From NCBI GenBank assembly GCA_017856375.1, contig JAFMFC010000001.1:27455-91454 (forward strand): DNA of 64,000 bases. Reading direction: 5' to 3'. Position numbers and translations under genes: made by a program. Positions 9,995 through 28,303 of this stretch are shown one piece after another. The notes under the pieces were generated by a model. It was not told the DNA's origin, did no database searches, and saw only the letters and a list, made by a program, of their open reading frames with translations. This stretch comes from Ilumatobacteraceae bacterium (GTDB lineage Bacteria; Actinomycetota; Acidimicrobiia; Acidimicrobiales; Ilumatobacteraceae). The stretch's first letter is position 1. Each line of letters opens with the position of its first letter.

Positions 9995-9996
9995 AA

Positions 9997-10437: not shown

Positions 10438-11048
10438 ACCAATTCGAGTCGACCATGGAAATTCTCTCGTCAACCCGGTCAATCCGACACTACGAATCGC
10501 GACCAGTGGAACGAGATCTACTTGAGTCACTGGTGCGCGCCGGCACATACGCATCAAACCCCAGAAATACTCAGCCCTGGCGATTCATCGTGGTGGACGA
10601 GCCGACAATCATCGCTGAGCTTGGCGAGTATCTCGTCCCTCGAGTCGCCGAATTGGACAAGATTATTTCTCGCATCGAAGACCCCGTGCGGGCGAAGGTC
10701 TACAAATCCGGGGCTCATCTGCTGCGAAACTTCGGCGCCTCGCCCGCGCTCATCTTTGTCTGCAGTGAGGAACGTGATTTCGGGCCCGGATTCGATTCTC
10801 GCGAAGCCGTGTTGAGCGCCGTACATGCTGCGGCGCAAAACATCTTGATTGCCGCGCGGGCGGCAAACCTCGGAGCGGCCTACACCACGTTTCATATCCA
10901 CGCCGAAGAGCACTTCAATACCTTGCTGAACATCCCCCAGGGAGTGAAGATCGACATCACGATCCCCGTAGGACATCCGAGCGTCAAGTTCGGACCCGTG
11001 AACCGTAAGGCCACGAGCGAGGTGATGCACTGGAACCGTCACCCCTAA
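10434..11048 (+). CDS. nitroreductase family protein
   Basis: ORF 10254..11048. The likely GTG start at 10434 (GTGA overlap with the NTF2 stop) gives VNQFESTMEILSSTRSIRHYESRPV and NTQPWRF, hallmarks of nitroreductases. Confidence 0.85.
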   Translation: MNQFESTMEILSSTRSIRHYESRPVERDLLESLVRAGTYASNPRNTQPWRFIVVDEPTIIAELGEYLVPRVAELDKIISRIEDPVRAKVYKSGAHLLRNFGASPALIFVCSEERDFGPGFDSREAVLSAVHAAAQNILIAARAANLGAAYTTFHIHAEEHFNTLLNIPQGVKIDITIPVGHPSVKFGPVNRKATSEVMHWNRHP

Positions 11049-13524: not shown

Positions 13525-13536
13525 AGTGGTCCCCTC

Positions 13537-14412
13537 TCAGCCGATCAAGACTCTCGCGTACTTTTCAATCTGCTCACGCCATGAGCGTCGTGAGAGCGCG
13601 AGACCAAAGTTGAATTCCGTGATCCCTCGTGCTTCGATTCCGCGGAGGTATTCCACCAGCTCGACGGGATCACCATGATGAGGAATCCCATTGACGAGTC
13701 GGAACCCGTCGTCCAAACTCCGGCCTGCTTGATCCAGTTCCTGACGCAACAACGCGAGCGCATCGTCGATTTCTTCCAAGGTCATCTTCCAGCCATACCA
13801 GCCATCGCCATGGCGCGCGGCGCGACGTATTGCAGCAGGCGTTACTCCGCCAACGAGGATCGGCGGATGAGGCTTCTGCACGGGTTTTGGAAAAGCCACG
13901 ACGTCATCGAAGTTGAAAAAATCTCCATGAAAAGAAGCCCGATCCTGGGTCCACAGAGCCTTCATCACCTTGATGTACTCGTCGCCGCGATCACCACGAC
14001 GCTCCCACGGCACACCGCAAGCGTCGTACTCCTCTTTCATCCAACCGATTCCCACGCCGTAGTCGAATCTTCCTCCACTGAAATGGTCGACGGTGGCCAC
14101 ATGCTTGGAACGGACGACGGGATTACGCAACGTGATTACCTCGACCGAGGTGCCCACCCGAATCTCTTTGGTCGCAGCTGCCGCCAGTTGACACACCATG
14201 ATCGGCTCCATCAAACCTTGGTCCTCGAGCCAACCAAATTTGCCGTCTTCACTGTGTGGATAGCGAGAATCGATGCGATCGAAGAACATGGCGTGGTCGG
14301 GAGCCCAGAAACTGGCGAAGCCGAGCTCTTCCATGTAGCGAGCAGATTCGGCGATGAATTCATCGGCTCGACCGGGCACGCCGTCCACGGTCAAAACAAT
14401 TCCCCACTTCAT
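13537..14412 (-). CDS. LLM-class F420-type oxidoreductase (Rv2161c-like subfamily), paralogue 1
   Basis: ORF 13537..14433; the likely start is MKWGIVL. Shared blocks WAPDHAMFF...YP, GGRFDYGVGIGWMKEEYDACG and FPKPVQKPHPPILVGG. Confidence 0.88.
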   Translation of the reverse strand: MKWGIVLTVDGVPGRADEFIAESARYMEELGFASFWAPDHAMFFDRIDSRYPHSEDGKFGWLEDQGLMEPIMVCQLAAAATKEIRVGTSVEVITLRNPVVRSKHVATVDHFSGGRFDYGVGIGWMKEEYDACGVPWERRGDRGDEYIKVMKALWTQDRASFHGDFFNFDDVVAFPKPVQKPHPPILVGGVTPAAIRRAARHGDGWYGWKMTLEEIDDALALLRQELDQAGRSLDDGFRLVNGIPHHGDPVELVEYLRGIEARGITEFNFGLALSRRSWREQIEKYARVLIG

Positions 14413-14447
14413 CGCTCTTACCCCCTCTGACAAAACGACTGTACCCC

Positions 14448-14463
14448 TAGCAAGCGATTGCTA
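14448..14463. promoter_or_regulatory. candidate operator, copy 3 (TAGCAAGCGATTGCTA; near-perfect palindrome)
   Basis: Lies 35 nt upstream of the LLM start at 14412, in the 94-nt gap after the ACS at 14528. Its reverse complement TAGCAATCGCTTGCTA matches the 7186 copy at 14/16. Confidence 0.55.
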
Positions 14464-14527
14464 CAAAAGAAGTAATCCCCGTACGGATCCGACTCAGCTC
14501 TTCTCCCCCACCTGATTTCGACTTCCG

Positions 14528-16078
14528 TCAGATCTTGAAAATGGAGTCTTTCCAGTACGGCTCACGAAGCACCCGCCGAAGAATCTTTCCCGTGGGGTTG
14601 AGCGGCAAGGGTTCTTCGCGAACGACTACTTCTCGCGGACACTTGTAATGAGCCAATCGATCACGCGTGTAAGTGATGACTTCAGCGGGTTCGATGGCGA
14701 CGCCCGAATGCGGCACGACGAACGCCAAGACGCGTTCTCCCCATTTTTCATCGGGAACCCCGACGACCGCGGCTTCGCGCACCCCCGGCATCGAACAAAT
14801 CACATTCTCCACTTCGGCCGGGTAAATGTTTTCACCGCCAGAGATGATCATGTCCTTGATGCGATCGGTCAGATACAAGAAGCCGTCTTCATCAACGAAG
14901 CCCGCATCTCCCGTGTACAACCAACCTTCACGATCGACGACGCGCGCCGTCTCTTGAGGATTGTTGAAATAGCCCTTCATCACAATTGACCCGCGAACTG
15001 CCACTTCACCTACCTCTCGCAAACCAAGCGAGATTCGGGATTCAGGATCGACGATCCTCATCTCCACCCAGGGAAACGGTCTTCCGACCGAGCGCATTCG
15101 CTCTGTTCCTGGGCGGTGCTCGTCCCACTGCATGGTCGTTATCGTTCCCGTGGACTCCGTGCTTCCATAAGCGTGATGAAATGCGCATTGCGGCATCCGC
15201 TCGATTGCTCGATTCAACAACGCCTGAGTGATCGGCGCCACTCCATAAACGACGTTACGCAGGCTCGACAAATCGGCGGACGATGCACGCTCATGATTGA
15301 GCACCATTCCCAGAACTGCAGGAACCATGAGCGTGAGATTGACCCGATGCTTTTCGATTGAAGTCAGGACATCCAGCACGTCGAACTCTCTCCGGAATAT
15401 GACCATGCCATCACGCAGCATGGGTAAGAGGACCCACAAGATCCCTGCTCCATGAAATACGGGATATGGGTTATAGACCACACAGCCGACTTCGAAGTGC
15501 CAGGAGTCGGCAAGCGCCTCAGCGATACCGAACATGTTTCCGTTCGTCAGCATTACACCTTTGGGTTTTCCAGTGGTGCCCGAGGTATACAGCTGATACA
15601 TCACGTCATCGGGCGCCAACTCGATCTCGGGATCCTCATCGGAATAATCGCCGATCAGCGAAAGCCACTCTTCGCTCGTTGGCGGCAACTCGATGATGTT
15701 GATTCCCATCCCCTCGAGAACCTCGCGGTTGAAGAGTCTGTCGAGGTCCGGATCGACGAAGAGGAACCGAGGTTTGGCATCTGCAAGGACTCCTGCAACT
15801 TCGTTCTCCGCGAGTCGCCAATTCACGGGAGTGGTTGCCGCACCAGCCTTCGCCACACCAAAGAGAATGTCAAAGAACTCGGGCCTGTTCTTGGAGAGAT
15901 AGCCCACCAGGTCTCCGCGCTGGAGCCCGCGATCCAACAACATGTTCGCCACCCTGCTGGAACGTTCTTGAAGTTGCTCATAGGTAACTGACGATTCTTC
16001 AGCGATGATCGCCGTCTTGACCCCATTGTTCGCCGCGCTGCGGCGAACAAGGTCAGCAAGATTTCGAACGTCGTTCAT
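14528..16078 (-). CDS. AMP-forming acyl-CoA synthetase
   Basis: ORF 14528..16111. The likely start MNDVRNLADL (ATG 16078) forms an ATGA overlap with the NTF2 stop. YTSGTTGKPKGVM, YTGDAGFVDEDG and GKILRRVLR are present. Confidence 0.92.
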   Translation of the reverse strand: MNDVRNLADLVRRSAANNGVKTAIIAEESSVTYEQLQERSSRVANMLLDRGLQRGDLVGYLSKNRPEFFDILFGVAKAGAATTPVNWRLAENEVAGVLADAKPRFLFVDPDLDRLFNREVLEGMGINIIELPPTSEEWLSLIGDYSDEDPEIELAPDDVMYQLYTSGTTGKPKGVMLTNGNMFGIAEALADSWHFEVGCVVYNPYPVFHGAGILWVLLPMLRDGMVIFRREFDVLDVLTSIEKHRVNLTLMVPAVLGMVLNHERASSADLSSLRNVVYGVAPITQALLNRAIERMPQCAFHHAYGSTESTGTITTMQWDEHRPGTERMRSVGRPFPWVEMRIVDPESRISLGLREVGEVAVRGSIVMKGYFNNPQETARVVDREGWLYTGDAGFVDEDGFLYLTDRIKDMIISGGENIYPAEVENVICSMPGVREAAVVGVPDEKWGERVLAFVVPHSGVAIEPAEVITYTRDRLAHYKCPREVVVREEPLPLNPTGKILRRVLREPYWKDSIFKI

Positions 16079-16539
16079 TCCGGTCTGACGAAGAACTTCG
16101 CCAGAGGCCACTCCCGGTCCTCGCCGTGGTATTCAATCGCATCCTTCACGATCACCGTTCGTCGAGCCACCGCGCACTCCTCTCCGCGGATCTCGACGAT
16201 GTCGTCGTAGAGCGCACCCATCAGCAAACTTTTGTCGCCAGTTCCCCGTTCTGCCCAATGAAAGGCAAGACTTGGCGTGCGCACCAGGAAACGATTGGGT
16301 GTTTCCTGCTCAATCTCAGGCTCGCCCACGAGGTGCAAAGTGGCGGAGAAGGTTTTCAGGGCGCGCTCAAAGTGGGCGATCAGTGCGTCACGGTCTCCCT
16401 TGACCACACCGTGATCGTCGTACGCATCTGCGAAGTAACACGACTTGACGGTTTCCCAATCACCCCGATCGACTGCCGCGGCGTATCGACGCATCAGATC
16501 AACGATCCTCGATCGAGTTTCGAAAGAAACAGAGTTCAC
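16075..16539 (-). CDS. SnoaL/NTF2-like protein
   Basis: 154 aa with IVDLMRRYAAAVDRGDWETVKSCYFADA, typical of SnoaL_4 or ring-hydroxylating-dioxygenase-beta-like folds. Overlaps both flanking ACS genes by 4 nt. Confidence 0.8.
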   Translation of the reverse strand: MNSVSFETRSRIVDLMRRYAAAVDRGDWETVKSCYFADAYDDHGVVKGDRDALIAHFERALKTFSATLHLVGEPEIEQETPNRFLVRTPSLAFHWAERGTGDKSLLMGALYDDIVEIRGEECAVARRTVIVKDAIEYHGEDREWPLAKFFVRPE

Positions 16540-18074
16540 GATCGGCCGATGAACGAGTCCCGGATCAGCCGCTTGTAGAGCTTGCCGTTGGGATCACGCG
16601 GGAGCTGATCCACAAAGTCGATCTTGCGAGGCAACTTGTAGCGAGCCAAATGATGCGAGCAAAAGTCGACCAATTCGTCAGCCAATTCGGGGGATCCCAC
16701 CACTCCAGCTATCGGCTGCACGACACACTGGATGTACTCGCCCCACTCTGGATCCGGCAGACCAAAGACTGCGACATCCGCCACCTTGGGATGTTGCTGC
16801 ATCACCGCCTCAACTTCCGATGGGTGCACATTCACTCCACCCGTGATGATGATGTCACTCGCACGACCATGGAGAAACAAGTAGCCCTCTTCGTTCAAGT
16901 GACCGAGGTCACCTACCGTGAAGAAACCATCGCGCGTCGATGATGCTGTCTTTTCTGGCGCATTGTGGTACTTGAATTCGAAAGCACCTGAAAGCATCCA
17001 CACCAGTCCTTCGGTGCCTGCAGGAACATGATTCCCCTCTTCATCAAGAATTCTGATTTCCGCACCGTGATAGGGACGTCCGACCGTGCCGGGGTACTTG
17101 AGCCATTCAGTCGAGTTCACCGTTGTGCCGCCACCTTCGGAGGCTCCGTAGTACTCGTACAACACCGGTCCGAGCCACTCGATCATTGCTTGTTTCGTCT
17201 CCACCGGACAGGGTGCGGCACCGTGCATGACGTACTTCATCGTCGACAGGTCGTACTTGGCGCGAACTGTGGGGTCGAGTTTGAGGAGTCGGTGAAAATG
17301 GGTGGGGACCATGTGCGAGGTGGTGATGCCGTACTTCTGGATGTTCTGCAGCACCACTTCGGCGTCCCACTGGTTCATCAAAACAAGAGTGTGACCATAT
17401 TGCGCGGATGCGTTGGCAAAGTTGAGGACGGCAGTGTGGTAATAGGGCGACTGGATTAACTGGACCTGATACTCCTCGCCGATCCCGAAGATCTTGAAGG
17501 GATGACTCCACAGCATTCCCACCTCATCGGGGTTTGCGCCCGACGCTGGACGCTTGATGCCCTTCGGTTTGCCCGTGGTGCCCGATGTATAAGTCATCAT
17601 CAAACCCATCGCGCGACCTTCAGGCTCATGGTCCGGCTGTCCAGCGAGGGCACCTGCAAGATGAACGAATCCAGTGACGGGTTCGGTGCAGAACAGCGAT
17701 TCGTTGGCGAGCCCAACACTCCGTGCGGCCGTCATGGTCTTGTCAGCAAACTCTGGAGTCGTGAAGATGGCTTTCGTTTCGCTGTCTTCGATGATGTACG
17801 CAATCTCCGCGTCAGTCAGATGGTAATTGATCGGGACGAAATACAGACCTGCCTGCATCGCCGCAAGAAAAACCGTCACTGATTCGATGCGATTGTCCAT
17901 CACCGCCGCAATCACGTCGTTCGCCTTGACGCCCTGATTTCTCAGCAGGTGAACGAGCTGGTGGGTCATCGCCGCCAGCTCTCCACGGGAAACGCTTCGA
18001 CCGGTTTCGGCTTCGATGATCGCCACGACATCCGGTTCCCGTCTTGCCACGTTCCAGAAACCGATCATCGTCAA
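16536..18074 (-). CDS. AMP-forming acyl-CoA synthetase
   Basis: 512 aa with YTSGTTGKPKGIK, FTVGDLGHLNEEG and GKLYKRLIRD. Confidence 0.92.
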   Translation of the reverse strand: MTMIGFWNVARREPDVVAIIEAETGRSVSRGELAAMTHQLVHLLRNQGVKANDVIAAVMDNRIESVTVFLAAMQAGLYFVPINYHLTDAEIAYIIEDSETKAIFTTPEFADKTMTAARSVGLANESLFCTEPVTGFVHLAGALAGQPDHEPEGRAMGLMMTYTSGTTGKPKGIKRPASGANPDEVGMLWSHPFKIFGIGEEYQVQLIQSPYYHTAVLNFANASAQYGHTLVLMNQWDAEVVLQNIQKYGITTSHMVPTHFHRLLKLDPTVRAKYDLSTMKYVMHGAAPCPVETKQAMIEWLGPVLYEYYGASEGGGTTVNSTEWLKYPGTVGRPYHGAEIRILDEEGNHVPAGTEGLVWMLSGAFEFKYHNAPEKTASSTRDGFFTVGDLGHLNEEGYLFLHGRASDIIITGGVNVHPSEVEAVMQQHPKVADVAVFGLPDPEWGEYIQCVVQPIAGVVGSPELADELVDFCSHHLARYKLPRKIDFVDQLPRDPNGKLYKRLIRDSFIGRS

Positions 18075-18086
18075 TTCACCCCCTGC

Positions 18087-18956
18087 TCAGATCCCCAGCG
18101 CTGTTGCCAGGTCTGAAATCTGTTCCTTGAACCTTGTCCGCGACATTCCCATTGCCACAACCATCTCGTCGATTCCCAATTTGACCAACCCGTCCCGATA
18201 ATCCGCGAGGTCTCGGAGGTCTCCTTTGAAGGGCAGGCCGACATTGAGTTTGACCTGCTCGCGAGTTCGCCCGAACTTCGCCAACTTGAGATCGATTTCG
18301 ACCAACTTTTCGGCCACTTCATCGAGCGAGAGCTTCCAACCATGCCAGCCATCGCCCAGTTTGGCCACTCGTGTGAGTGCTGCGGGACTGTTGCCACCAA
18401 TGACGATGGGAATTCTGCCGCTGGTCGGCTTGGGAAAAAAGATGGCGTTTTCGAACGAGACGAACTCCCCGGAGAAGTTGGATCGCTTGGACGACCACAA
18501 TTCGCGCATCGCGAGGATCCACTCATCGCATCGCTTCCCACGATCATCGAAGGAAATTCCGAGTGCGGCGTACTCCTCGACTGACCAACCGACGCCAATT
18601 CCGTATTCGACTCGCCCCTTCGACACCATGTCGAGTGTCGCCAGTTCCTTTGCGCGGATGACGGGATGGCGCTCAGTGACAATCTCGACGGATGTCCCCA
18701 GACGAATCCGGTCGGTCACCAGTGCCGCCTCCAAGAGCGTCATCGCGGGTTCGAGGATCCCCTGGTTCGCCTTGAATTGAATTGCACCATCATCCGTGTG
18801 CGGATATTTCGACTGATAGTTGTCGAAGAACACGACGTGGTCAGGAACCCACAACGAATCGAACCCACAGTGTTCGACATGTTTGGCGAATTCTCGCACG
18901 TGTTCGACACCGCGCCCTTCCGTACCGTCAAAGATCTGAACGATTCCGACTTTCAT
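18087..18956 (-). CDS. LLM-class F420-type oxidoreductase (Rv2161c-like), paralogue 2
   Basis: 289 aa with WVPDHVVFF...YP, KGRVEYGIGVGWSVEEYAALG and FPKPTSGRIPIVIGG. About 45% identical by eye to 13537..14412. Confidence 0.88.
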   Translation of the reverse strand: MKVGIVQIFDGTEGRGVEHVREFAKHVEHCGFDSLWVPDHVVFFDNYQSKYPHTDDGAIQFKANQGILEPAMTLLEAALVTDRIRLGTSVEIVTERHPVIRAKELATLDMVSKGRVEYGIGVGWSVEEYAALGISFDDRGKRCDEWILAMRELWSSKRSNFSGEFVSFENAIFFPKPTSGRIPIVIGGNSPAALTRVAKLGDGWHGWKLSLDEVAEKLVEIDLKLAKFGRTREQVKLNVGLPFKGDLRDLADYRDGLVKLGIDEMVVAMGMSRTRFKEQISDLATALGI

Positions 18957-19043
18957 CAGTTGTCAACAGCCACGGTTACCACCAGTGCTTTTTCCCCAAA
19001 CAAACGCTAGTTAGCATAATGATGAGGGGCAAAAGGGGACAAG

Positions 19044-19478
19044 TTGACTACCTATATGTCGTTCCTTGAACGAGTTCGGCGACTCCACTCGTCGTACTGC
19101 GCCTGCGTCGACAACGAGGATTTTGATGGGCTCGTCTCACTCTTCGCCCCAGATGCGGAGATCAACTACGGACCGACCATGAAAGCGCAAGGTTCCAAGT
19201 CGATCGACCGATTGTTCCGTGCCCTGCGCACGAGTTGTGAGGCGACCAGCCACCACACCACCAACACCACCGCCGATCCGTCATCGCTTTCCGGCATGAC
19301 CTACGTGATGGCTTGGCACAAATTTGCGGATGCCCCAGACCTCGTGGTGTGGGGTCGCTACCTCGACGAATTCGTCACCAAGGATGACGAGCTGCTCGTC
19401 TCCAAGCGAACATTGCTCGTGCACGGATCCACCCGTCCCATGCCCTTCAACTCACTGCCGCGAATCATGCTGAAGTGA
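19044..19478 (+). CDS. SnoaL/NTF2-like protein
   Basis: 144 aa with RLHSSYCACVDNEDFDGLVSLFAPDA...ATSHHTTN. The TTG start lies 5 nt after AAGGGGA. The 3' end overlaps the convergent LLM by 14 nt. Confidence 0.75.
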   Translation: MTTYMSFLERVRRLHSSYCACVDNEDFDGLVSLFAPDAEINYGPTMKAQGSKSIDRLFRALRTSCEATSHHTTNTTADPSSLSGMTYVMAWHKFADAPDLVVWGRYLDEFVTKDDELLVSKRTLLVHGSTRPMPFNSLPRIMLK

Positions 19479-20454
19479 CGTATTTGGCGTACTCACGCAT
19501 GTTCTTTTCGTAATCGACGTTGGGAAACCTGGGCGAGCAGACGATGTCGCTCACGCCACCCAAGGCCTTCACTTCACGGATGAATTCTTCGTCGGACTTC
19601 CACGACTCTTGCGTGCGCCCCTCATTACGTCTACCGACCACCACCCGGACGTCGCTCATCTTTCGACCACAATCTGCGAGCTTGCCGTCAAAGACATCCA
19701 GCACCTTGGCAATCTGAGAAACGTCGAGGTCATAGATGATAAGGCCGTCACCGATTCGCGCCGCACGATCGATCGCCCGCAGCGACTGTCCTCCCACGAG
19801 AAGGGGTACGTGCGGTTTCTGCAGCGGCTTCGGAAACGCCAGCAGCGGCTTGAAACTCACCGTGTCACTTGTGTACGAGCTGACATTCTCCGTCCATAGC
19901 GACTTGAGTGCACCGACATAGTCCTCCATGCGCTCGCCGCGATTCTCGAATGGAACGCCACATGCCTCGTACTCCTCTTTCAACCAACCGACTCCCACAC
20001 CAAGATCGAAACGGCCGCCAGTCAGTTGATCAACCGTGGCGATTTCTCTGCCGAACACAACTGGGTTGCGCTGGGGAAGGATGACGATGAACGTGCCGAA
20101 TCGGAGAGTGGTCGTCACTGCCGCTGCGGCCACCGCGACGATTGGTCCATCCATTATTCCTCGTGTTCCGGTATTCCCTTCCTCCTTGCGGGTACGTGAA
20201 ATTTCAGCCGCGCCTGTCGCACCATAGGGATATTTGGATTCGAAGGTTTCAAAAAAGACGACGTGTTCGGGCAACCACAGCTGGTCGTATCCGATGGACT
20301 CAATGAGCTGAGCGGTCTCTCTCAGGAAACCGAGCTCTCGTCCTGCTTCACCTAGGAATACCTCACTCAAGCCGATTCGCACCGAGCTGCGCGGCTCAAA
20401 CGAAGTCTTCTTTGGCTCGTACTCTTTCATCCAACCAAGCTCTCCACCGGACAT
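19465..20454 (-). CDS. LLM-class F420-type oxidoreductase (Rv2161c-like), paralogue 3
   Basis: 329 aa with WLPEHVVFF...YP, GGRFDLGVGVGWLKEEYEACG and FPKPLQKPHVPLLVGG. Confidence 0.88.
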   Translation of the reverse strand: MSGGELGWMKEYEPKKTSFEPRSSVRIGLSEVFLGEAGRELGFLRETAQLIESIGYDQLWLPEHVVFFETFESKYPYGATGAAEISRTRKEEGNTGTRGIMDGPIVAVAAAAVTTTLRFGTFIVILPQRNPVVFGREIATVDQLTGGRFDLGVGVGWLKEEYEACGVPFENRGERMEDYVGALKSLWTENVSSYTSDTVSFKPLLAFPKPLQKPHVPLLVGGQSLRAIDRAARIGDGLIIYDLDVSQIAKVLDVFDGKLADCGRKMSDVRVVVGRRNEGRTQESWKSDEEFIREVKALGGVSDIVCSPRFPNVDYEKNMREYAKYVTSA

Positions 20455-20456
20455 CG

Positions 20457-21215
20457 TTAGTTCCCCCCTTTCAATTGCCCACCCGTGACGCGTGCAAAAT
20501 CGTTCAGTGTCAAGGGAGTTTTGATTTCGTCGACTACTAGCTCTGCCGAGTTGGCGACACCTTGCGTCAACCGAATCCGACGATCGTTGTTCCAGCAGAA
20601 ATCCACACCGTCGCTGTCCTCTCGTTCCACTGTGCCACCGAGAAGATCTCCAAACACCCGACGGGCTCCTCTGACATCACTAGAAGACAGGTCAACTCGC
20701 ACGAACTTTGTCGGACGAGCAGCGACGAGATCATTCCACTCCGGTTCGGTGGGTGACTCCTTTTCGTGGGGACACTCAGCGATTTGGACAAGGATGCCAC
20801 CCGCCGTCTTCGGATGAACGAAAGCCTCCATCCAATTCGGGTTGTCGAGGCTGATTTGGATCAGCTCAATGCCCAGTTCTTTTGCCAGGTCGATCATCCC
20901 CCGAATGTCCTTGGTCCTGAAGGTCAAGTGATGGGGACCTGGACCGCGGCGTGACAGGAATCGGTTGGTGAAGTGATCTTCATCGGTCGAATTCGGGTGA
21001 ATCAGTTCCACTTTGAATCCACCGGGAAACGTGACCTGCACACCGCCGAATTGCCCATTCATCTCCCATAGACGCCACGTGAGTCCGAGTTCGTTGCGTA
21101 ACACCTTGAAAGACGTCCGCGGATCTGCCACGCAATATGCGATGTGGTCAAACCACAGGTCAGGGAAGGTTTCAATCGATGAATAGGTGACTGGTTTGTC
21201 AGGGAACAACGTCAT
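20457..21215 (-). CDS. VOC (glyoxalase/dioxygenase/epimerase fold) family protein, two-module
   Basis: 252 aa with FDHIAYCV and GPGPHHLTF His-containing beta-alpha-beta modules. 4-nt overlap with the ACS. Confidence 0.8.
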   Translation of the reverse strand: MTLFPDKPVTYSSIETFPDLWFDHIAYCVADPRTSFKVLRNELGLTWRLWEMNGQFGGVQVTFPGGFKVELIHPNSTDEDHFTNRFLSRRGPGPHHLTFRTKDIRGMIDLAKELGIELIQISLDNPNWMEAFVHPKTAGGILVQIAECPHEKESPTEPEWNDLVAARPTKFVRVDLSSSDVRGARRVFGDLLGGTVEREDSDGVDFCWNNDRRIRLTQGVANSAELVVDEIKTPLTLNDFARVTGGQLKGGN

Positions 21216-22741
21216 AACTCATCCCGCAGCAATCGCTTACGAATCTTTCCTTGCAAATCCTTCGGCAGATCGCTTCGAAAGACGACGCGCTTGGGCACCT
21301 TGTATGGAGCCAGTCGTTGTCGACAATGTCCGATAATCGCACCTTCGTCTGTGGACTTACCGTCACGAATCACCACGCAAGCGACCACCGCCTCGCTCCA
21401 CTTTTCATCCGGAACGCCAATGACCGCTACCTCGATCACTCCATCCACCTCGAGAATCGCTTGCTCTACCTCGAGTGACGAAACATTCATGCCGCCAGTC
21501 TTGACCACATCTTTCTTACGGTCATAGAAGAAGAGGTTGAGGTCATCATCTCGTCGAACGATGTCACCCGTGTGCAGCCACCCTCCGCGCACTGCCTCAG
21601 CGGTACGTGCCGGATCGTCGCGATACCCCTTCATCACGGCAGGAGATCTGACCACCATCTCACCCACCTCCGCCTCTTGTCCCTCATCGTCTACGACTCG
21701 AACTTCGAGGTGTGCAGTAGGTTTTCCGATCCAACGGAGATCACCGCCGGGGATATCCTCGAGTTGGCGAAACCATCCAATACTCCCCAGTTGGCTGAGT
21801 TCGGACTGTCCCCAATAGGTTGCCCACCACAGCTTCGGGACTTTGTCGACGAATGCCTTGAACACGCTCGCCTGATTCAAACCACCATATGTATGACACT
21901 GCTGGAGTGAACCCAGATCCGCCTGAATGAATCTCGGACTCTCGACCATCCTTCGATAGAACGTGGGCGTCTGCGACATATTCGTCACTCGTTCGGACTC
22001 GATTGCATCGATCACTACGTCAGGGTCAGTGGAGTCGAGAACCACCATCGTCGAACCCATCGACATGGCGTTGGTCACCGTGCCGATTCCAGCCATCGTG
22101 TGAATCGGTGCCAAGAGCAAGAACACATCAAGATTTCGCAAATAACCCTCGTAGGACCAAGCAGGCGTGGTGGCAATCATGAAGTTCCGATGGGTGATCT
22201 CTACACCCTTCGGCCTACTCTCCGTTCCACTCGTGTAGACAATTGCCGCAGTTGACGACTCGTCGATTAGCACCTCTGGCACATCAAATCGCATGCCCAG
22301 CGATTGTTCGAGCAAACCATCGAATTCGGTTACGGCAGCACCGTGACTCGTGAAAGGTACCCGGCTGTCCGTCGATCTTGTGGCCACGATTGCCGGTTTG
22401 CTGTGTTCGATCTGAAAGTCGATTTCATCATCGGTGTGGGCGTGATTGAGCATCGTGAACGAACATCCAGATTTCAATGTCGCCATGTAAGCGGCCACGA
22501 GATCTACGCCGTTCCGACCGATACCTGCAACGACAGAACCTGGAGCAAGTCCCGCCTCGATCCAGCGCGCAGCGAGCATGTTTGCATAATTGTCCAGCTG
22601 GCCGTAAGTGACGACCCGTCGCGAACCCGTCACCGATCTCTCAATCAGTGCCGCTCTCGTCGAATGACGTGCCGCATTGCGTTGCAGCATGTCTGAAATG
22701 ACTGCTCGGCGCAGACGATTATCGACGATGTCGTCCGCCAT
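21212..22741 (-). CDS. AMP-forming acyl-CoA synthetase (variant P-loop TSGTESRPKG)
   Basis: 509 aa with YTSGTESRPKGVE, LHTGDIVRRDDD and GKIRKRLLRD. The start directly abuts the mutase small-subunit stop. Confidence 0.9.
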   Translation of the reverse strand: MADDIVDNRLRRAVISDMLQRNAARHSTRAALIERSVTGSRRVVTYGQLDNYANMLAARWIEAGLAPGSVVAGIGRNGVDLVAAYMATLKSGCSFTMLNHAHTDDEIDFQIEHSKPAIVATRSTDSRVPFTSHGAAVTEFDGLLEQSLGMRFDVPEVLIDESSTAAIVYTSGTESRPKGVEITHRNFMIATTPAWSYEGYLRNLDVFLLLAPIHTMAGIGTVTNAMSMGSTMVVLDSTDPDVVIDAIESERVTNMSQTPTFYRRMVESPRFIQADLGSLQQCHTYGGLNQASVFKAFVDKVPKLWWATYWGQSELSQLGSIGWFRQLEDIPGGDLRWIGKPTAHLEVRVVDDEGQEAEVGEMVVRSPAVMKGYRDDPARTAEAVRGGWLHTGDIVRRDDDLNLFFYDRKKDVVKTGGMNVSSLEVEQAILEVDGVIEVAVIGVPDEKWSEAVVACVVIRDGKSTDEGAIIGHCRQRLAPYKVPKRVVFRSDLPKDLQGKIRKRLLRDEL

Positions 22742-23140
22742 TTATATTCCAGAAGTCAATCGGTGCGCAGCCTCGGCAATGGCGGCGAGCGTTGTTCCCG
22801 GTGGATACACCTCGACGCCAAGTTCCCGGAGTTTCGAGGCGGCACCTGGCGGCACTGTTCCCCCGCAAAAGACCGGGATGCCATCGAGACCGACTGCCTT
22901 CAGTTCATCCATGATGCGATAGACGACTTCAATTCGTCCACCCACATTGAGACCGACCAAATCGACGTCCTCATCGCGCGCAACCTGAGCGATCTGAGAG
23001 GGGCGCAACATTCCCCCGAGGATGACCTCGAACCCTGCATCACGCAGGGCTCTAGCGACGAGTGACACGCCACGCCAGTGACCATCCAGGCTCGTCTTGG
23101 CGATCAGTACCTTTGCGCGAAATTCATTCTGGTTCGACAT
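22742..23140 (-). CDS. cobalamin (B12)-binding small subunit of an acyl-CoA mutase
   Basis: ORF 22742..23176; the likely start is MSNQNEF. The DxHxxG motif reads SLDGHWRG, followed by DVDLVGLN and a CGG Rossmann-like B12-binding domain. Confidence 0.88.
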   Translation of the reverse strand: MSNQNEFRAKVLIAKTSLDGHWRGVSLVARALRDAGFEVILGGMLRPSQIAQVARDEDVDLVGLNVGGRIEVVYRIMDELKAVGLDGIPVFCGGTVPPGAASKLRELGVEVYPPGTTLAAIAEAAHRLTSGI

Positions 23141-23142
23141 GA

Positions 23143-24768
23143 TCAGACTCCAAACTGATTTTCCGACACGTTCCACACTCCGAACGCATCACGAAATACT
23201 TGCCCGATTTCCCCGATAGATGCGTCCGCCTGGACCGCACCCATCACAGCAGGAACGATGTTGCCATCACCACGACAGACTCCCTCCAACTCCCGCAATG
23301 CAGTCATCGTCGCTGTCGTGTGTCGCTCGCGTCGTAAAACCGTGAGCCTCTCCATTGCCTGAGCCCACGTCACGTCCCCCGAACGACCTTCAAATCCGTC
23401 CACATGCATGATCGGATCATCCACCAAGTGCGCATTGACGCCAACCAACTTCATCTCGTTCGCTTCGAATCGCTTGGCCTGTGCAGTCTGCTCGTCCGAA
23501 GCACGACCCCTCAACCAACCATTTTGAACTGTCGCCACAAAGCCTCCCTGACCTTGAATCTCGTCAAAAACCTCCCAGGCTCGCTTCTCCAGTTCATTGC
23601 AGAGACTCTCGATGTAGAACGACCCTCCAAGTGGGTCGACTACTGACGTGAGACCAGTTTCCTCTTGGAGAACTTGCTGGATTCTGATCGACATCAGGTG
23701 GGCATGATCGGATGGAATCGACAAAGCCTCGTCGTAGCCAGACACACCAAGCGACTGAGTTCCACCAAGAGCTGAAGCAAGAGCCATCACCGTGCCACGA
23801 ACGATGTTGTTGAATGGTTCTTGATACGTCATTGCACTTCCCGCAGTTACCACGTGGATACGCATACGCGAAGCCTTCGGGTCAGAAATCCCATAACGAT
23901 TCAGCAGCAGGTCGTGCCACATCTTGCGAGCCACACGCAACTTGGCAATCTCCTCGAAGAAGTCCATCGACACGCGGAAATTGACACCGCCAATTTGGTG
24001 TGCGAAATCAGCGGGCTTCAACCGACCCCGAGCCTGGATCCCATCGAGGTACTCGACCGCGGTCGACAACACCGCTGCCAATTCTTGTGGAGCATTCAAG
24101 CCGGAATCGGCCCCGTTGTATCCAGCGATCGAAACAGGTACCCACTTGGGCATGTGTTCGTTGCAGAACTCGATGATGTCGAGGTTGAAGCGCAGTGCAG
24201 CTTCGGGAGGGATCTGCTCCTTGCACGGGCAACCGAGATACGTAAGAAAGAAATCGCTCTGCCCCGTTCCCGCAATTTGCGACAACTTGAGCCCACGCGA
24301 CAGGGCCACGGACCAGTACGAACTCTGCGTATAAGGAGCCGACTGAGGCACACCTCCGCCGGGCTTGGCGTAGACCGACTCGATCGGAATGCCGTCCATG
24401 ATCGTCTGGTAGTCGCGGAGTCCAACGGTTACGGTGCCCGTCAAGCCCACGTCTTCACGCCGCTCGGCAACCTCCGGGTGATCGACGTCGTACAAATGGT
24501 CATCGGTCATGCGATCGTGCTTGACGATGATGCCGGTTTCACCAGCCTTGAGGAGAAACTTCAACCTTGCGTTCATGTCCTCGGGGCTGCCGAATCCGCT
24601 CAGCTGAAAGATTCGCCATGGCTTGCTGCGATACATCTCCGGGTAAGCACCGCGAATGAACGGCGCCTCGCCTGCTCCACCACGCAGTAGGTCCCACCAC
24701 GAATCTGGGACGTCATTTCGATCGTAAATCAATTTGCGCTCGATGCCTGAAGCTGACTGGTGTTCCAT
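23143..24768 (-). CDS. methylmalonyl-CoA mutase-family large (substrate-binding TIM barrel) subunit, divergent
   Basis: 541 aa with PFIRGAYPEMYRSKPWRIFQLSGFG, ISIAGY-type block VSIAGYNGADSG, FFEEIAKLRVARKMW and VDPLGGSFYIESL, which match the MCM/ICM family scaffold. Confidence 0.88.
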   Translation of the reverse strand: MEHQSASGIERKLIYDRNDVPDSWWDLLRGGAGEAPFIRGAYPEMYRSKPWRIFQLSGFGSPEDMNARLKFLLKAGETGIIVKHDRMTDDHLYDVDHPEVAERREDVGLTGTVTVGLRDYQTIMDGIPIESVYAKPGGGVPQSAPYTQSSYWSVALSRGLKLSQIAGTGQSDFFLTYLGCPCKEQIPPEAALRFNLDIIEFCNEHMPKWVPVSIAGYNGADSGLNAPQELAAVLSTAVEYLDGIQARGRLKPADFAHQIGGVNFRVSMDFFEEIAKLRVARKMWHDLLLNRYGISDPKASRMRIHVVTAGSAMTYQEPFNNIVRGTVMALASALGGTQSLGVSGYDEALSIPSDHAHLMSIRIQQVLQEETGLTSVVDPLGGSFYIESLCNELEKRAWEVFDEIQGQGGFVATVQNGWLRGRASDEQTAQAKRFEANEMKLVGVNAHLVDDPIMHVDGFEGRSGDVTWAQAMERLTVLRRERHTTATMTALRELEGVCRGDGNIVPAVMGAVQADASIGEIGQVFRDAFGVWNVSENQFGV

Positions 24769-24776
24769 TGCTCCTC

Positions 24777-25718
24777 CTAGAGACTTTCCAATTCGCCGGT
24801 CTGCGGTACGGCGATTTCACCGTCTACAAAACCAACCATGAACAAGAACGAACCTGGCTGGACCATGTTCGGCGAAGTCGTCAACATCAGCACCACGCCG
24901 TCGCGCGTTGACGAGAAACTCTCGTGAATGCCGTTCGATTGCGGGCTAACGATCTGGCCAATAGAGCCTGCATCAATTTTCGCTCCCACTTTGAGATCCC
25001 GTGAGGTTGACCAAATTCCCGTTGTCGAGGCCAACGCCAGTTGCACCTCCGCAATCCGGGGAACGCTTGACGCCCCAACCAAAGGCTCGTTGAGATGTCC
25101 ACGGGCACGTAAAAAATTGAGCGAACTGGTCACACCGGGGAGTTCATCCGCCGCAAGTCCACCCCCAAACTCCGCAAGGCAACTGGGAATCCCCCGAGCG
25201 GTCAAGACGGAAGACAACTGGGTGGGGTGTCCGCGCCCCACGATCACGGGCAGTACGCCCGTTGATGCAGACAACGACGGCAAACCGTAGTCGTAGGTGT
25301 AGTGCAGACCCATCGTTGGCGTCCCGGAATGAAGGTCGAGTACCGCATCACAACGGTCTTCGAGGAAGCGCAGAAGGTGATGTGCGGTCTGATCCGTTAC
25401 AAAACCCGATTGAGATCCAGGAAATCTGCGATTGAGCAACAGGGCGTCGGGGCCCATGCGACTGCCAATCTCGAGAGCTGCGGGGTTAGCACCAGGAACA
25501 ACAACAACCGAACCGCGGAAGTCGTCGCGCGAAGACAGATCCTCGACAACCCGATGCGCGGCAATCACGCCGAGAGGTTTGTCGCCCCAGATACCTGCAA
25601 CAATCCCCGAACGCGGGCCTGGTCGTCCGCCTTCAATGATGTACGCGGTAATTGACCAAGGGCTTCCATCGCCTCGCGCACCGAACGTGATCTGCGTGCG
25701 CTCAACTTTTGATCCCAT
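24777..25718 (-). CDS. succinylglutamate desuccinylase/aspartoacylase (M14, AstE/AspA) family homologue with a degenerate Zn site
   Basis: 313 aa with family blocks VVPGANPAA, LNRRFPG and VLDLHSG, but the expected GxHGxE reads GIWGDK (TGG and AAA codons verified). Confidence 0.8.
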   Translation of the reverse strand: MGSKVERTQITFGARGDGSPWSITAYIIEGGRPGPRSGIVAGIWGDKPLGVIAAHRVVEDLSSRDDFRGSVVVVPGANPAALEIGSRMGPDALLLNRRFPGSQSGFVTDQTAHHLLRFLEDRCDAVLDLHSGTPTMGLHYTYDYGLPSLSASTGVLPVIVGRGHPTQLSSVLTARGIPSCLAEFGGGLAADELPGVTSSLNFLRARGHLNEPLVGASSVPRIAEVQLALASTTGIWSTSRDLKVGAKIDAGSIGQIVSPQSNGIHESFSSTRDGVVLMLTTSPNMVQPGSFLFMVGFVDGEIAVPQTGELESL

Positions 25719-25725
25719 GGCTGAA

Positions 25726-27153
25726 TCAGACCGTCATCAACGGGCGCCGATCAGCCCATGGCGACTCGACTTCCAATTGTCGAGCCAGCTGGAAGAGCGT
25801 CTCTTCGTCTCCATAACGAGCGGCAAATTGCATTCCGACCGGCAAACCATCTGCCCAACCCAGAGGGACCGACATCGCTGGCTGGCCAGTTGCATTGAAC
25901 ATTGCGGTGAATGGGATGTATCCCCACAACGCCTTGAGGAATGACTGGAGATCATCGGTGTTCATGTCGAAGGTGCCGATCGGTTGCGGTGGCTTTGCCG
26001 TAGTGGGGCGCAGAATCACGTCGTACTCCCGCATGAATTCACCTACTGCTCGTCCTGCTTGATGGAGCGTTTCGACGGCTTTTACGTAGTCCACGGCACT
26101 CACCTGCTTACCGACGTCGACTCGGTATTGCATCACCTTCTCGAGATCTCCAGCCTGGGGTTCACGCCCGAGCACCGCTGCTCGCTTGCCCACATTGAAT
26201 GCGTGGTGCACTGCGATCACCTTCACATTGGCGTCTGATACCGCAGCTCCATCTATCTCAGGAATCGCCTCGACACACGTATGCCCGTTTGATCTCAGGA
26301 TGTTCACTGTTGACATCAATTCAGCGACTACGCGATCGTCCACCGGCGCGCCAGAAGGAGCAACGGCGGTGTACGCGATTTTTAACGGGCGCACACGTTC
26401 ACTGAGCGCATCGACAAACGATCGGCGAGGTGTGGGAATCCCATACGGATCTCCCGGCGCAGGTCCCGCGATCACGTCGAGGAGTGCAGCGGAATCGCGC
26501 ACCGATCGCGTGATGGCATGCTCGCTCGTCATACCGTTCCATCCTTCGCCCAGTTTCGGCCCAAACGAGGTACGCCCACGTGATGGCTTCAGCCCGAACA
26601 ATCCACAACAGGAGGCAGGAATACGAATCGAACCACCGCCGTCGGTGGCATGGGCAGCGGGGACGATTCCCGCGCACACCGCGGCGGCGGCTCCGCCGCT
26701 AGAACCACCCGCCGAATAAGCAAGGTTCCAAGGGTTTCGAGTGGGTCCGAACAATTGCGGCTCCGCAGACACGTTGCCACCCAGTTCCGGTGTATTCGTC
26801 TTGCCGAAAATGACCAAGCCGCTCTCTCGCAGCCGTCGGACGGTCACCGTGTCGTAGTCAGGCACGAAGTCCTTGAAGAACACGCTTCCTTGTGTCGTGG
26901 GAACCCCCGCATACATAGCGGTGAGGTCCTTCAACAGGTACGGCACACCATAGAGAACGGCGCTCTTGTCCGATTCCCGTAGCGCCCGGCGACCTTCAGA
27001 CTCCATCAAAGTTACGACAGCATTCACACTTGGATTAACGCGCTCAGTGATCGCAAGTGCAACGTCCAACAACTGACTACCAGAAACTTGACCGGACTTG
27101 ACCAATTCCGCCAGTCCCAGCATGTCGAAGGTCTGATACTCCTCGGTTTTCAT
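25726..27153 (-). CDS. amidase (amidase-signature family)
   Basis: 475 aa with LLKDL (Lys), GGSSGGAAAAV and GGSIRIPAS signature motifs. Confidence 0.92.
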   Translation of the reverse strand: MKTEEYQTFDMLGLAELVKSGQVSGSQLLDVALAITERVNPSVNAVVTLMESEGRRALRESDKSAVLYGVPYLLKDLTAMYAGVPTTQGSVFFKDFVPDYDTVTVRRLRESGLVIFGKTNTPELGGNVSAEPQLFGPTRNPWNLAYSAGGSSGGAAAAVCAGIVPAAHATDGGGSIRIPASCCGLFGLKPSRGRTSFGPKLGEGWNGMTSEHAITRSVRDSAALLDVIAGPAPGDPYGIPTPRRSFVDALSERVRPLKIAYTAVAPSGAPVDDRVVAELMSTVNILRSNGHTCVEAIPEIDGAAVSDANVKVIAVHHAFNVGKRAAVLGREPQAGDLEKVMQYRVDVGKQVSAVDYVKAVETLHQAGRAVGEFMREYDVILRPTTAKPPQPIGTFDMNTDDLQSFLKALWGYIPFTAMFNATGQPAMSVPLGWADGLPVGMQFAARYGDEETLFQLARQLEVESPWADRRPLMTV

Positions 27154-27160
27154 TCGTCAA

Positions 27161-28303
27161 CTACTTGGACTCGCGAGCGATGGAAATCAGTTCACCACCG
27201 CGACCCATGCTGGTCTGCACCGCTTCGGCAATCTTCGTGACTTCAAGACCATCAATCCCGGACGGAAACTTGCCCTCGAGATCGGCGATGTTTCCACCGT
27301 TCAAGACGTACCCGAGATTCAGCGCAAAATCCTGGATCGATTCGATGCCGTAACCAGCGAACTCCGGCTGTCCCCACCGATCGTTGCTCTGAATGAACAG
27401 ACCAAGATTGGGTGTGAACATCGCGTTCTCCGGGAGCACCCTGTCGGACTTCCCGACGGCCGAACCCACCGAGCCTTTCAAGCAACCTCGGGCACCCCGA
27501 TCCTGTGAGTCAACCGTCAACCAGCCCTCCGAACCGACAACCTTGATTCCCTGATTGACGATTGCTTCGTTGCCGTCAGGAATATGCCATGAAACGTCGA
27601 AATGGAAAGAGGCCCCGGATTCAAACTGCACACGAGCGTTGACGGCGTCGTACGTATCGATGCCGATACCCGACAGTTTGCCCTTGTGCCCGACCGCAGA
27701 TACCGCAGTGGCATCGGACTTGATCAGCCATCGCACGAGATCGAAGAGATGCACGCCAAGGAACCAAGCGGGGCTGCTCTCTGATGCCCACCTTGGCAGC
27801 CAATCTCGCGGCACTTCGATGCGGTCTTCCATCCACGCATATCCGTATTGCACATTGCCCAGCTGCCCACGCGCGATGCGCTGTTCAAGATCGATGTGAT
27901 ACGGATCCTTGCGCTTCATGAATTCCATTTGAATGAACTTGCCATTGGCCTTTGCGATTTGGAGGAGTTCACGGCAACCGTCCGAGGTGATGTCCATCGG
28001 CTTTTCGATCAACACATTGCTTCCCGCCTTCATTGCAGTGGCCGCAACAGCGCGGTGCAGGTGGTCGGGAACGGCAATGGAAACGCCATCGGGCTGGCAG
28101 CTCGACAACATCTCATCCAAGGACGTGAATGTCGGTACTCCGAACTCTGACTTGCGCTCTGCGAGCACCGACTCATCCAAGTCGACGAGACCAACCAACT
28201 CGCAACGACCATTCCGCTGTAATTGCGAAAACGCACGCAAATGCATGTGACCCCACGTTCGACCGCCTACTACCGCGATGCGTGGAACTCTCTTGCTGCT
28301 CAT
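27161..28303 (-). CDS. Gfo/Idh/MocA family NAD(P)-dependent oxidoreductase
   Basis: 380 aa with an N-terminal Rossmann segment RIAVVGGRTWG and a LIEKPM motif. Confidence 0.88.
   Translation of the reverse strand: MSSKRVPRIAVVGGRTWGHMHLRAFSQLQRNGRCELVGLVDLDESVLAERKSEFGVPTFTSLDEMLSSCQPDGVSIAVPDHLHRAVAATAMKAGSNVLIEKPMDITSDGCRELLQIAKANGKFIQMEFMKRKDPYHIDLEQRIARGQLGNVQYGYAWMEDRIEVPRDWLPRWASESSPAWFLGVHLFDLVRWLIKSDATAVSAVGHKGKLSGIGIDTYDAVNARVQFESGASFHFDVSWHIPDGNEAIVNQGIKVVGSEGWLTVDSQDRGARGCLKGSVGSAVGKSDRVLPENAMFTPNLGLFIQSNDRWGQPEFAGYGIESIQDFALNLGYVLNGGNIADLEGKFPSGIDGLEVTKIAEAVQTSMGRGGELISIARESK

Follow-up and report, generated by a model that had tools for sequence, protein, structure and literature searches.

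A widespread, apparently uncharacterised clade of acyl-CoA mutase-like proteins with leucine, cysteine and asparagine at three classical active-site positions

The mutase gene pair

We characterized a putative coenzyme B12-dependent acyl-CoA mutase encoded in a 64,000-nucleotide stretch of an Ilumatobacteraceae bacterium genome (contig JAFMFC010000001.1; the whole stretch is hereafter the window). A by-eye alignment (the original prediction) had indicated that the residues of its large subunit corresponding to Tyr89, Arg207 and His244 of methylmalonyl-CoA mutase (MCM) are all replaced. We find the replacements to be the shared signature of a discrete clade of related proteins (Leu/Cys/Asn; L/C/N). 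The genes and positions on which the argument turns are as follows.

23143–24768, reverse strand: acyl-CoA mutase large (substrate-binding TIM-barrel) subunit, 541 amino acids, ATG start, PF01642; carries the clade signature L56/C180/N218
22742–23140, reverse strand: small B12-binding subunit, 132 amino acids; PF02310 (E = 1e-18), TIGR00640 (103 bits)
23069–23086, reverse strand: DGHWRG in the small-subunit translation, the DxHxxG base-off/His-on cobalamin-binding motif (D19-G-H21-W-R-G24)
24601–24603, reverse strand: Leu56 codon, at the position of MCM Tyr89 and HcmA Ile90 (HMMER pairwise and MAFFT)
24511–24522, reverse strand: K83-H84-D85-R86; K83 at the position of HcmA Asp117, H84 where the family conserves Phe, R86 an invariant clade-specific Arg
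24229–24231, reverse strand: Cys180 codon, at the position of MCM Arg207 and HcmA Gln208 (MAFFT and spacing from a conserved Gln)
24115–24117, reverse strand: Asn218 codon, at the position of MCM His244; the preceding Tyr217 (equivalent to Tyr243) is retained (HMMER pairwise and MAFFT)

The small-subunit ATG lies 2 nt past the large-subunit TGA, and the mutase is 94% identical to its counterpart in an Ilumatobacteraceae metagenome-assembled genome (MAG). The large subunit matched PF01642 with an E value of 2e-134 and 449 bits (cutoff 22.1) over profile positions 3–512 of 512, and exceeded the cutoff of the NCBIfam model for the acyl-CoA mutase N-terminal domain (TIGR00641; 382 bits, cutoff 303.8). 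It scored far below the cutoff of the NCBIfam MCM equivalog NF006944 (345 bits, cutoff 876) and did not reach that of the NCBIfam IcmF model (135, cutoff 1500). An AlphaFold2 model built from 48 clade sequences (pLDDT 83, pTM 0.88) was compared with known structures using Foldseek, yielding TM-scores of 0.89 to HcmA (4r3u_A) and 0.88–0.89 to MCM (1req/4req); the large-subunit scaffold is therefore that of the acyl-CoA mutase family. The pair has the TIM-barrel domain, the fold and the DxHxxG-bearing B12 domain of the superfamily (the motif exactly as first read by eye), together with equivalents of MCM Gln197, Tyr243, His328 and Glu370; an equivalent of His244 is absent. An open reading frame for 289 amino acids (23821–24690, forward strand) runs antisense inside the mutase gene; such frames are common at this GC content and it is not a gene.

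Register of the three signature positions

The motifs quoted in the original prediction, PWRIFQLSGF (24592–24621), GTGQSDFFLTYLGCPCKEQIPP (24205–24270) and SIAGYNGADSG (24100–24132), all translate exactly at the expected coordinates. Pairwise HMMER alignments with MCM of P. shermanii (5req/1req), human MCM and HcmA (4r3u) matched Leu56 with Tyr89 and Asn218 with His244 of MCM; the residue at the Tyr89 position is Phe in the 5req Y89F mutant and Ile in HcmA. A MAFFT alignment of 143 family sequences gave the same correspondences. The HcmA residues were located in the 4r3u alignment, and we take their numbers to be Ile90, Asp117 and Gln208. Near Arg207, the window protein has a one-residue insertion after the helix, and the position of the HMMER gap differs between MCM and HcmA. 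The ten-residue spacing from a conserved Gln (Q197 in MCM, Q170 in the window) to Cys180 is gap-free, the residue in the MAFFT column of Cys180 is Arg for MCM, Gln for HcmA and Asn for Xaut_5043 (a Xanthobacter mutase discussed below), and within the clade Cys180 is invariant, with variation at positions 181 (P/I/V) and 182 (T/P/C). The equivalent of Arg207 is therefore Cys180 and not Pro181, the two residues between which the by-eye reading had not decided. With three alignment methods concurring on Leu56, Cys180 and Asn218, that reading had the register right at all three positions, where proper alignments put no canonical Tyr, Arg or His.

Distribution and phylogeny of the clade

The database survey for the signature that the original prediction had proposed recovered a well-populated clade. 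At least 120 cluster representatives, 58–100% identical to the query, were retrieved from 5.8 billion protein clusters, and a DNA-pattern scan covering one genome per GTDB species found a relative encoded in 189 genomes. Carriers include many Acidimicrobiia (among them the sponge symbionts 'Ca. Spongiisocius'), Nitriliruptorales, Thermoleophilia, Chloroflexota (Ca. Leptofilum and Ktedonobacterales), Alphaproteobacteria and Gammaproteobacteria; Pseudohaliea rubra DSM 19751, Congregibacter variabilis IMCC43200 and strain NOR5-3 are cultured carriers. A collection of plasmids contained no clade member (best match, 36.5% identical).

Pairwise identity among 116 full-length members ranged from 54 to 100% (median, 63%), and 96 of the 541 columns were invariant. 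Both Cys180 and Asn218 are within these 96 columns (120/120 members), and position 56 is Leu in 115 of 120 members and Ile in 4. The complete triad was present at all 83 clade loci, whose mutases are 56–94% identical to the query, and its unusual residues are under purifying selection. Two sub-clades can be told apart: a K-type (K83/K135/P141/S143/P181; 29 loci, including the window, all from Acidimicrobiia-type MAGs where a taxon is named) and an E-type (E83/H135/V141/H143; 54 loci from several phyla). Position 83, which is Lys in the window, is Glu in 73 of 120 members.

When 1.84 billion representatives clustered at 50% identity were searched with HMMER, the whole clade collapsed into a single representative (872 bits), followed by P0121 (45% identity, 536 bits), P0122 (43%, 452 bits) and then a continuum at 30–38%. 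Neighbour-joining recovered the clade as monophyletic in 100 of 100 bootstraps, the clade with P0121 and P0122 in 100 of 100, and the group further enlarged by P0123 and P0127 in 91 of 100. HcmA, MCM and Xaut_5043, each about 30–33% identical to clade members, were placed outside the clade and its sister clusters. A full-text literature search found no characterised enzyme with the L/C/N signature, which is absence of evidence only given that most subscription-journal papers fall outside its coverage. The clade is discrete, widespread and apparently uncharacterised.

Source annotations name clade members 'methylmalonyl-CoA mutase', and the Pfam family itself bears the name MM_CoA_mutase, as would fit an ordinary MCM whose odd residues were tolerated variation or an alignment artefact. 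Against this stand the agreement of three alignment methods on the register, the score far below the NF006944 cutoff, the separate clade with its 100% bootstrap and the presence of His in all 26 canonical reference sequences that have the Tyr/Arg pair. We give an ordinary MCM next to no probability; the replacement of Tyr89, Arg207 and His244 by Leu56, Cys180 and Asn218 in the alignments effectively rules it out.

Cofactor machinery

The small subunit is encoded directly downstream of the large subunit at 82 of 83 loci, and in all 82 the D, G, H, W and G of DGHWRG and a GG motif are invariant. At 17 of the 83 loci, a gene for a MeaB-type G-protein chaperone is found no more than 5 kb away. The cofactor machinery is thus intact (DGHWRG and GG in 82/82 loci, the large-subunit residues Q170, Y217, H305 and E347 kept, MeaB linked in 17/83), which argues for an active B12 enzyme. 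An Rfam scan of the window detected no cobalamin riboswitch. At small-subunit residues 61–69 (window 22940–22960), where we take the SxL motif of MCM-type B12 domains to lie, the clade reads L-V-G-L-N-V-G-G, with Asn65 at 80 of 82 loci; the dimethylbenzimidazole tail may be held in an altered way.

A catalytically dead paralogue, or a regulatory or scaffolding one comparable to the MutA beta subunit of P. shermanii MCM, would explain the loss of the catalytic His and of several adenosyl-pocket residues, and the window contains no MeaB gene. The pocket residues are, however, invariant at 54–100% identity, whereas dead subunits drift, and this invariance disfavours a decaying paralogue. The dedicated B12 subunit with its DxHxxG motif intact in 82/82 loci, the lack of an adjoining canonical large subunit at 82 of 83 loci, the retention of Glu347, Tyr217 and Gln170 and the 17 loci with linked MeaB likewise speak against inactivity, to which we assign only a slim chance.

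Remodelling of the active site and the His-less sector

The depth of the remodelling was assessed against 40 canonical references (sequences resembling MCM, ICM, HCM or PCM in which His244, the H-x-Q-T motif and Glu370 are all present; ICM, isobutyryl-CoA mutase; HCM, 2-hydroxyisobutyryl-CoA mutase; PCM, pivalyl-CoA mutase). Of 129 columns at least 80% conserved in these references, the clade keeps 88, consistent with the original description of the scaffold as family-typical, and differs at 41, so that 38 family-conserved positions are altered beyond the triad. The principal changes are listed below, with canonical residues in MCM numbering by our own count.

Thr85 (canonical) to Arg52 (clade)
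Arg87 to Phe54
Phe117 to His84
Asn198 to Ser171
Lys202-Glu203 to Leu175-Thr176
Glu247 to Asp221
A barrel Phe to Arg265
Gln330 to Val307
H-T-N before Glu370 (N is Asn366) to G341-V342-S343

Q170, Y217, H305 and E347, the equivalents of Gln197, Tyr243, His328 and Glu370, are retained and invariant in the clade; we take these four to be residues that handle the cofactor and the radicals. Judged from the alignments, the clade pocket appears to be remodelled much more deeply than those of ICM, HCM and PCM, which depart from MCM at two or three positions. With L56, F54, F173, F174, L175 and C180, it also looks more hydrophobic than that of MCM. L56, F54, H84, R86, Q170, F174, C180, Y217 and N218 are predicted to be its lining residues.

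The gained arginines bear on the charge of the substrate. R52, R86 and R265 are invariant in the clade, where canonical mutases have Thr, Leu or Met, and Phe at these barrel positions, and the family-conserved Arg87 has become Phe54. R52, F54 and L56 occupy alternate strand positions corresponding to T85, R87 and Y89, as though the Arg had been shifted by two residues. The distal carboxylate of an anionic substrate (an alkyl- or aryl-succinyl- or malonyl-CoA, or a longer methyl-branched dicarboxylyl-CoA) could in this way be held by R52, R86 and R265 in place of Arg207, although these residues may equally bind the phosphates of CoA. A gene for a methylmalonyl-CoA-epimerase-like protein of the vicinal oxygen chelate (VOC) superfamily follows the ligase gene in the window and would suit such a substrate, but it is restricted to the two closest loci; the linked genes include none for a carboxylase or succinate-adding enzyme, and the ligases resemble fatty-acyl- and feruloyl-CoA synthetases. 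We consider an anionic substrate unlikely. The original prediction had argued from the loss of Arg207 that methylmalonyl- and succinyl-CoA are improbable substrates. The NF006944 score (345 against 876) and the separate clade with 100% bootstrap agree with this for those two esters, whereas the loss of Arg207 itself still leaves room for an anionic substrate, given the gain of R52, R86 and R265.

The loss of His244 extends well beyond the window protein. All 26 Tyr/Arg sequences among the canonical references have His244. In 133 neighbouring representatives of 50%-identity clusters this column holds Asn in about 25 and Asp in about 12, and none of the four sister clusters of the clade has His. 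The novelty therefore lies in a large uncharacterised sector of the family and not in one gene. By these alignments, the acyl-CoA mutase family evidently holds a sizeable 'His-less' sector, of which the clade appears to be a prominent, well-populated member. No Asn was seen in this column in MCM, HCM, Xaut_5043 or the ICM-like Phe/Gln clusters, RCM (RcmAB of Kyrpidia tusciae) and ethylmalonyl-CoA mutase (ECM) not being among the sequences compared. Within that range, the original statement that the His-to-Asn change is not known from any characterised mutase holds, but the change is not peculiar to the window protein, Asn being common in neighbouring clusters. Representatives P0121–P0269 have very diverse residues in the Tyr89 and Arg207 columns (for example, P0132, I/V/C/N; Streptomyces P0134, L/T/N). 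P0132 is, we presume from the abstract of the RCM paper, unlikely to be RcmA; the abstract reportedly names Asp117 to Val as the sole striking difference from HcmA. RcmA of Kyrpidia tusciae has the accession D5WTR7 (PMC11599936); neither homologues of P0132 nor the clusters looked up contained it.

The missing His, usually the acid catalyst of the acyl shift, could also signal adenosylcobalamin (AdoCbl) radical chemistry other than a 1,2-shift of the thioester, such as a Cys180 thiyl relay (compare class II ribonucleotide reductase) or a reaction in which a hydroxyl or amino substituent of a CoA ester migrates or is eliminated. The site that binds the distal group of the substrate has an invariant Cys, the adenosyl-side residues are remodelled, and the Cys and Asn pair at the Arg207 and His244 columns recurs in the unrelated cluster P0132. 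Class-III aminotransferase, AstE-like deacylase and amidase neighbours (described below) may point to substrates that contain nitrogen in Acidimicrobiia. Asn can, however, still hydrogen-bond the thioester carbonyl; beta-oxidation-type neighbours fit a skeleton rearrangement; and the nearest sister clusters have Asn or Thr in the Cys180 column, so the Cys is dispensable in the wider His-less group. We therefore regard this chemistry as very unlikely for the pair, and hold it equally doubtful that the clade and its His-less sister clusters together form a branch with radical chemistry unlike the classical thioester 1,2-shift. If true, that branch would represent a new reaction class of B12 enzymes in abundant aquatic and sponge-associated bacteria.

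Gene neighbourhoods

In the window, the mutase pair belongs to a tightly packed run of same-strand genes, in which the two subunit genes stand between the AstE-like and the ligase genes.

27161–28303, reverse strand: GFO/IDH/MocA oxidoreductase, the first gene of the run (PF01408 and PF22725)
25726–27153, reverse strand: amidase-signature amidase, 7 nt upstream of the AstE-like gene (PF01425, E = 1e-96)
24777–25718, reverse strand: AstE/AspA-family (Zn deacylase-like) protein, 8 nt upstream of the mutase (PF24827, E = 7e-18)
21212–22741, reverse strand: AMP-binding acyl-CoA ligase, abutting the small subunit and presumed to supply the mutase substrate (PF00501 and PF13193)
20457–21215, reverse strand: two-domain VOC/glyoxalase protein with a 4-nt overlap with the ligase stop (PF13669/PF00903)
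19465–20454, reverse strand: F420-type luciferase-like (LLM) oxidoreductase (PF00296; TIGR03619, 210 bits)

The nearest structures to the ligase in the Protein Data Bank (PDB) are FadD13, feruloyl-CoA and malonyl-CoA synthetases, making it a generic FadD13-like enzyme, and no 2-hydroxyisobutyrate (2-HIBA)-CoA ligase was among its top 60 PDB matches. The VOC protein matched the methylmalonyl-CoA epimerase model TIGR03081 weakly (51 bits, below the cutoff of 115), and this gene is confined to the two closest Ilumatobacteraceae loci. The AstE-like protein is nearest to N-acetyl-diaminobutyrate deacetylase (E = 2e-12) among PDB entries and only distantly DoeB-like. The amidase occurs at the same position only in the closest relative (L006). 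Together, the amidase and AstE-like genes upstream of the mutase suggest an N-acyl compound as the source of the acid. An AstE-like gene adjoins the mutase upstream on the same strand at 12 loci (L004–L006, L030–L032, L035–L038, L044 and L061) and lies elsewhere in L082; the coupling is seen in both the K-type and E-type sub-clades, and its recurrence suggests an N-acylated precursor.

The window encodes five paralogous AMP-binding acyl-CoA ligases, all on the reverse strand (11989–13524, 14528–16111, 16536–18074, 21212–22741 and 48579–50153), interleaved with F420/luciferase-like oxidoreductases (13537–14433, 18087–18956 and 19465–20454) and SnoaL-like proteins. This ligase and LLM island (11989–22741 and 48579–50153) suggests catabolism of many unusual acids.

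Across the 83 clade loci (neighbours within 5 kb, counted using tblastn), an AMP-forming CoA ligase was present at 62 and is, besides the B12 subunit, the sole near-universal neighbour. Other neighbours were short-chain dehydrogenases/reductases (SDR; 26 loci), TetR regulators (21), enoyl-CoA hydratases (19), an acetolactate synthase (ALS)-like thiamine diphosphate (ThDP) enzyme with a class-III aminotransferase (13, in sponge Acidimicrobiia), P450 (10) and acyl-CoA dehydrogenases (10). In Congregibacter variabilis the order is mutL-mutS-meaB-enoyl-CoA hydratase-SDR (mutL and mutS being the large and small subunit genes), with a divergent set of Fe-alcohol dehydrogenase, TetR, CoA ligase and TonB-dependent receptor genes. 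At this locus (L075, strain IMCC43200), mutL spans 7965–9599, mutS 9611–9997 and meaB 10010–11011. Comparisons with PDB entries gave no substrate-specific clue from the neighbours: the P450 is generic CYP107-like, the aminotransferase a generic omega-transaminase, and the ThDP enzyme closer to acetolactate synthase than to 2-hydroxyacyl-CoA lyases.

Some loci stand apart. Sponge-associated and other Acidimicrobiia (L007–L012, L014–L019 and L024) have a fixed order of mutL, mutS, the ALS-like ThDP enzyme (596 amino acids), a class-III omega-aminotransferase and a CoA ligase. From one of these loci to another the neighbours share about 91% identity, indicating a separate variant of the pathway. 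One MAG (L034, 8001–13000) has a second mutase pair, in small-then-large order, right after the clade pair, so that two distinct mutases may stand in tandem there. In a gammaproteobacterial MAG (L002, 15376–21629), the clade mutase lies 3.7 kb from acetone-carboxylase-like genes (Hydantoinase A/B and Acetone_carb_G). In the Desulfobacterales sister cluster, the genes that come next encode a Liv-type ABC transporter with an AMP-binding ligase, and Hydantoinase_A is a neighbour as well. These acetone-carboxylase-like and Hydantoinase_A genes hint at a possible link to ketone metabolism.

Predicted function and mechanism

On balance, we favour with moderate confidence the reading that the pair is an active two-subunit AdoCbl mutase with a new, non-methylmalonyl substrate, isomerizing an alpha-branched or 2-hydroxy acyl-CoA of neutral or weakly polar character that the adjacent ligase supplies. 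It seems reasonable to regard a methylmalonyl- or succinyl-CoA enzyme as unlikely, and methylmalonyl-CoA would not be bound in the canonical way. A 2-hydroxy-2-alkyl-acyl-CoA (as in HCM) and an alkyl- or aryl-branched acyl-CoA (as in ICM or PCM) are about equally plausible.

In the proposed mechanism, for which the ligase step derives from gene linkage and the others from what is known of the family, the AMP-forming CoA ligase would activate a carboxylic acid and the small subunit would bind AdoCbl base-off/His-on through H21. The CoA ester would then thread the large-subunit TIM barrel and set off Co–C homolysis, leading to a 1,2-shift of the thioester group between neighbouring carbons that turns an alpha-branched acyl-CoA into a straight or beta-substituted isomer, or the reverse. 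The amide of Asn218 may polarize the thioester carbonyl in place of His, possibly with the clade-specific H84 or H91. The product could then be taken up by enzymes whose genes recur beside the clade: an enoyl-CoA hydratase, an SDR-type dehydrogenase, an acyl-CoA dehydrogenase and a thiolase. Overall, an acid taken up or released would be converted to its CoA ester, isomerized and handed to beta-oxidation-type enzymes.

Several points weigh against this proposal. The clade lacks the catalytic His244, and MCM mutants at H244 lose activity about 100–1000-fold; an enzyme with Asn may therefore be slow or work differently. Putative adenosyl-contact positions are altered as well (Q330 to V307, N366 to S343 and the H of the same motif to G341), AlphaFold2 confidence falls below 50 at large-subunit residues 340–353, and the 64-kb window has no MeaB gene. 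Identity between the linked ligases and that of the window is only about 34% and the neighbours beyond the ligase vary strongly by lineage, and thus a single common substrate for the whole clade is not assured. Both the substrate assignment and the activity of clade members are predictions.

Significance

To our knowledge, acyl-CoA mutases of only a few specificities have been described (MCM, ICM/IcmF, ECM, HCM/RCM and PCM). These opened up the pathways of propionate, of valine and polyketide precursors, of ethylmalonyl-CoA, of methyl tert-butyl ether/2-HIBA, and of pivalate, and each also gave a biotechnological route to branched building blocks. The clade is a clean candidate for a further specificity: it is tight, has an invariant non-canonical pocket, is found in at least 189 species-level genomes, including those of cultured Halieaceae, and is linked to CoA ligases. 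Because it lacks the His regarded as the acid catalyst, its study would test how essential that residue is. For Acidimicrobiia of fresh water and the sea and for sponge symbionts, the clade would represent a B12-dependent function that has gone unrecognised, with a bearing on the cobamide demand of their communities, and its proteins are currently mis-annotated as methylmalonyl-CoA mutase. Many further non-canonical clusters of the family are likewise uncharacterised, which moderates the significance of this one.

Comparison with known mutases

MCM (P. shermanii MutB, 1REQ/4REQ; human MMUT, 2XIJ) shares with the window mutase the fold (TM-score 0.88), the cofactor-binding mode and 88 of 129 conserved columns. 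It differs in that Tyr89, Arg207, His244, Arg87, Gln330 and Asn366 are all replaced in the clade, and in that the B12 domain of the window mutase is a separate polypeptide. The Phe/Gln/His signature of ICM and IcmF is not found in the clade, and representatives that have it (P0148, P0212, P0244 and P0264) fall outside.

HcmAB of Aquincola tertiaricarbonis (4R3U) is the nearest solved structure by both sequence (E = 2e-83) and fold (TM-score 0.89). It likewise has separate large and small subunits, an operon-linked CoA ligase and an aliphatic residue at the Tyr89 position (Ile in HcmA, Leu in the window); a MeaB-type chaperone and an SDR are present in many clade loci. The large subunits are only about 30–33% identical, with Ile/Asp/Gln/His in HcmA against Leu/Lys/Cys/Asn in the window; across the clade, Asp117 is replaced by Lys or Glu83, Gln208 by Cys180 and His by Asn218. 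The window ligase is FadD13-like, unlike the HCL-like 2-HIBA-CoA ligase of the HcmAB system, and the clade is phylogenetically separate.

The plasmid-borne (pXAUT01) pair Xaut_5043/5044 of Xanthobacter autotrophicus Py2 is, we presume, an isovaleryl-CoA/pivalyl-CoA mutase, and was reportedly described by Kitanishi et al. in 2015 as a native PCM. Xaut_5043 has Leu at the Tyr89 position (WTQRQLIGLG), and the two-subunit layout and nearby TetR, MeaB and AMP-binding ligase genes are also alike. It belongs to another branch (31% identity), with Gln-His instead of Tyr-Asn at 243/244, Asn in the Arg207 column, and canonical H-Q-T and H-x-D motifs where the clade has H-V-T and G-V-S.

A cluster of ThDP enzyme, mutase, MeaB and SDR genes has been described for the ketone pathway of Desulfococcus biacutus and Desulfosarcina cetonica (PMC7888143), with RcmAB-like mutases whose large subunit is 64.7 kDa (PMC7888143, PMC7176365). 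It resembles clade loci with an ALS-like ThDP enzyme (13), SDR (26) or MeaB (17), one of which lies near acetone-carboxylase-like genes. Compared by description only, it differs in the mass of the large subunit (59 kDa in the window) and in its ThDP enzyme, as that of the clade resembles acetolactate synthase more than it does 2-hydroxyacyl-CoA lyases. Pivalate (through PCM) and 2-HIBA (through HCM) are activated to CoA esters, isomerized and then processed by beta-oxidation-type enzymes (PMC7176365).

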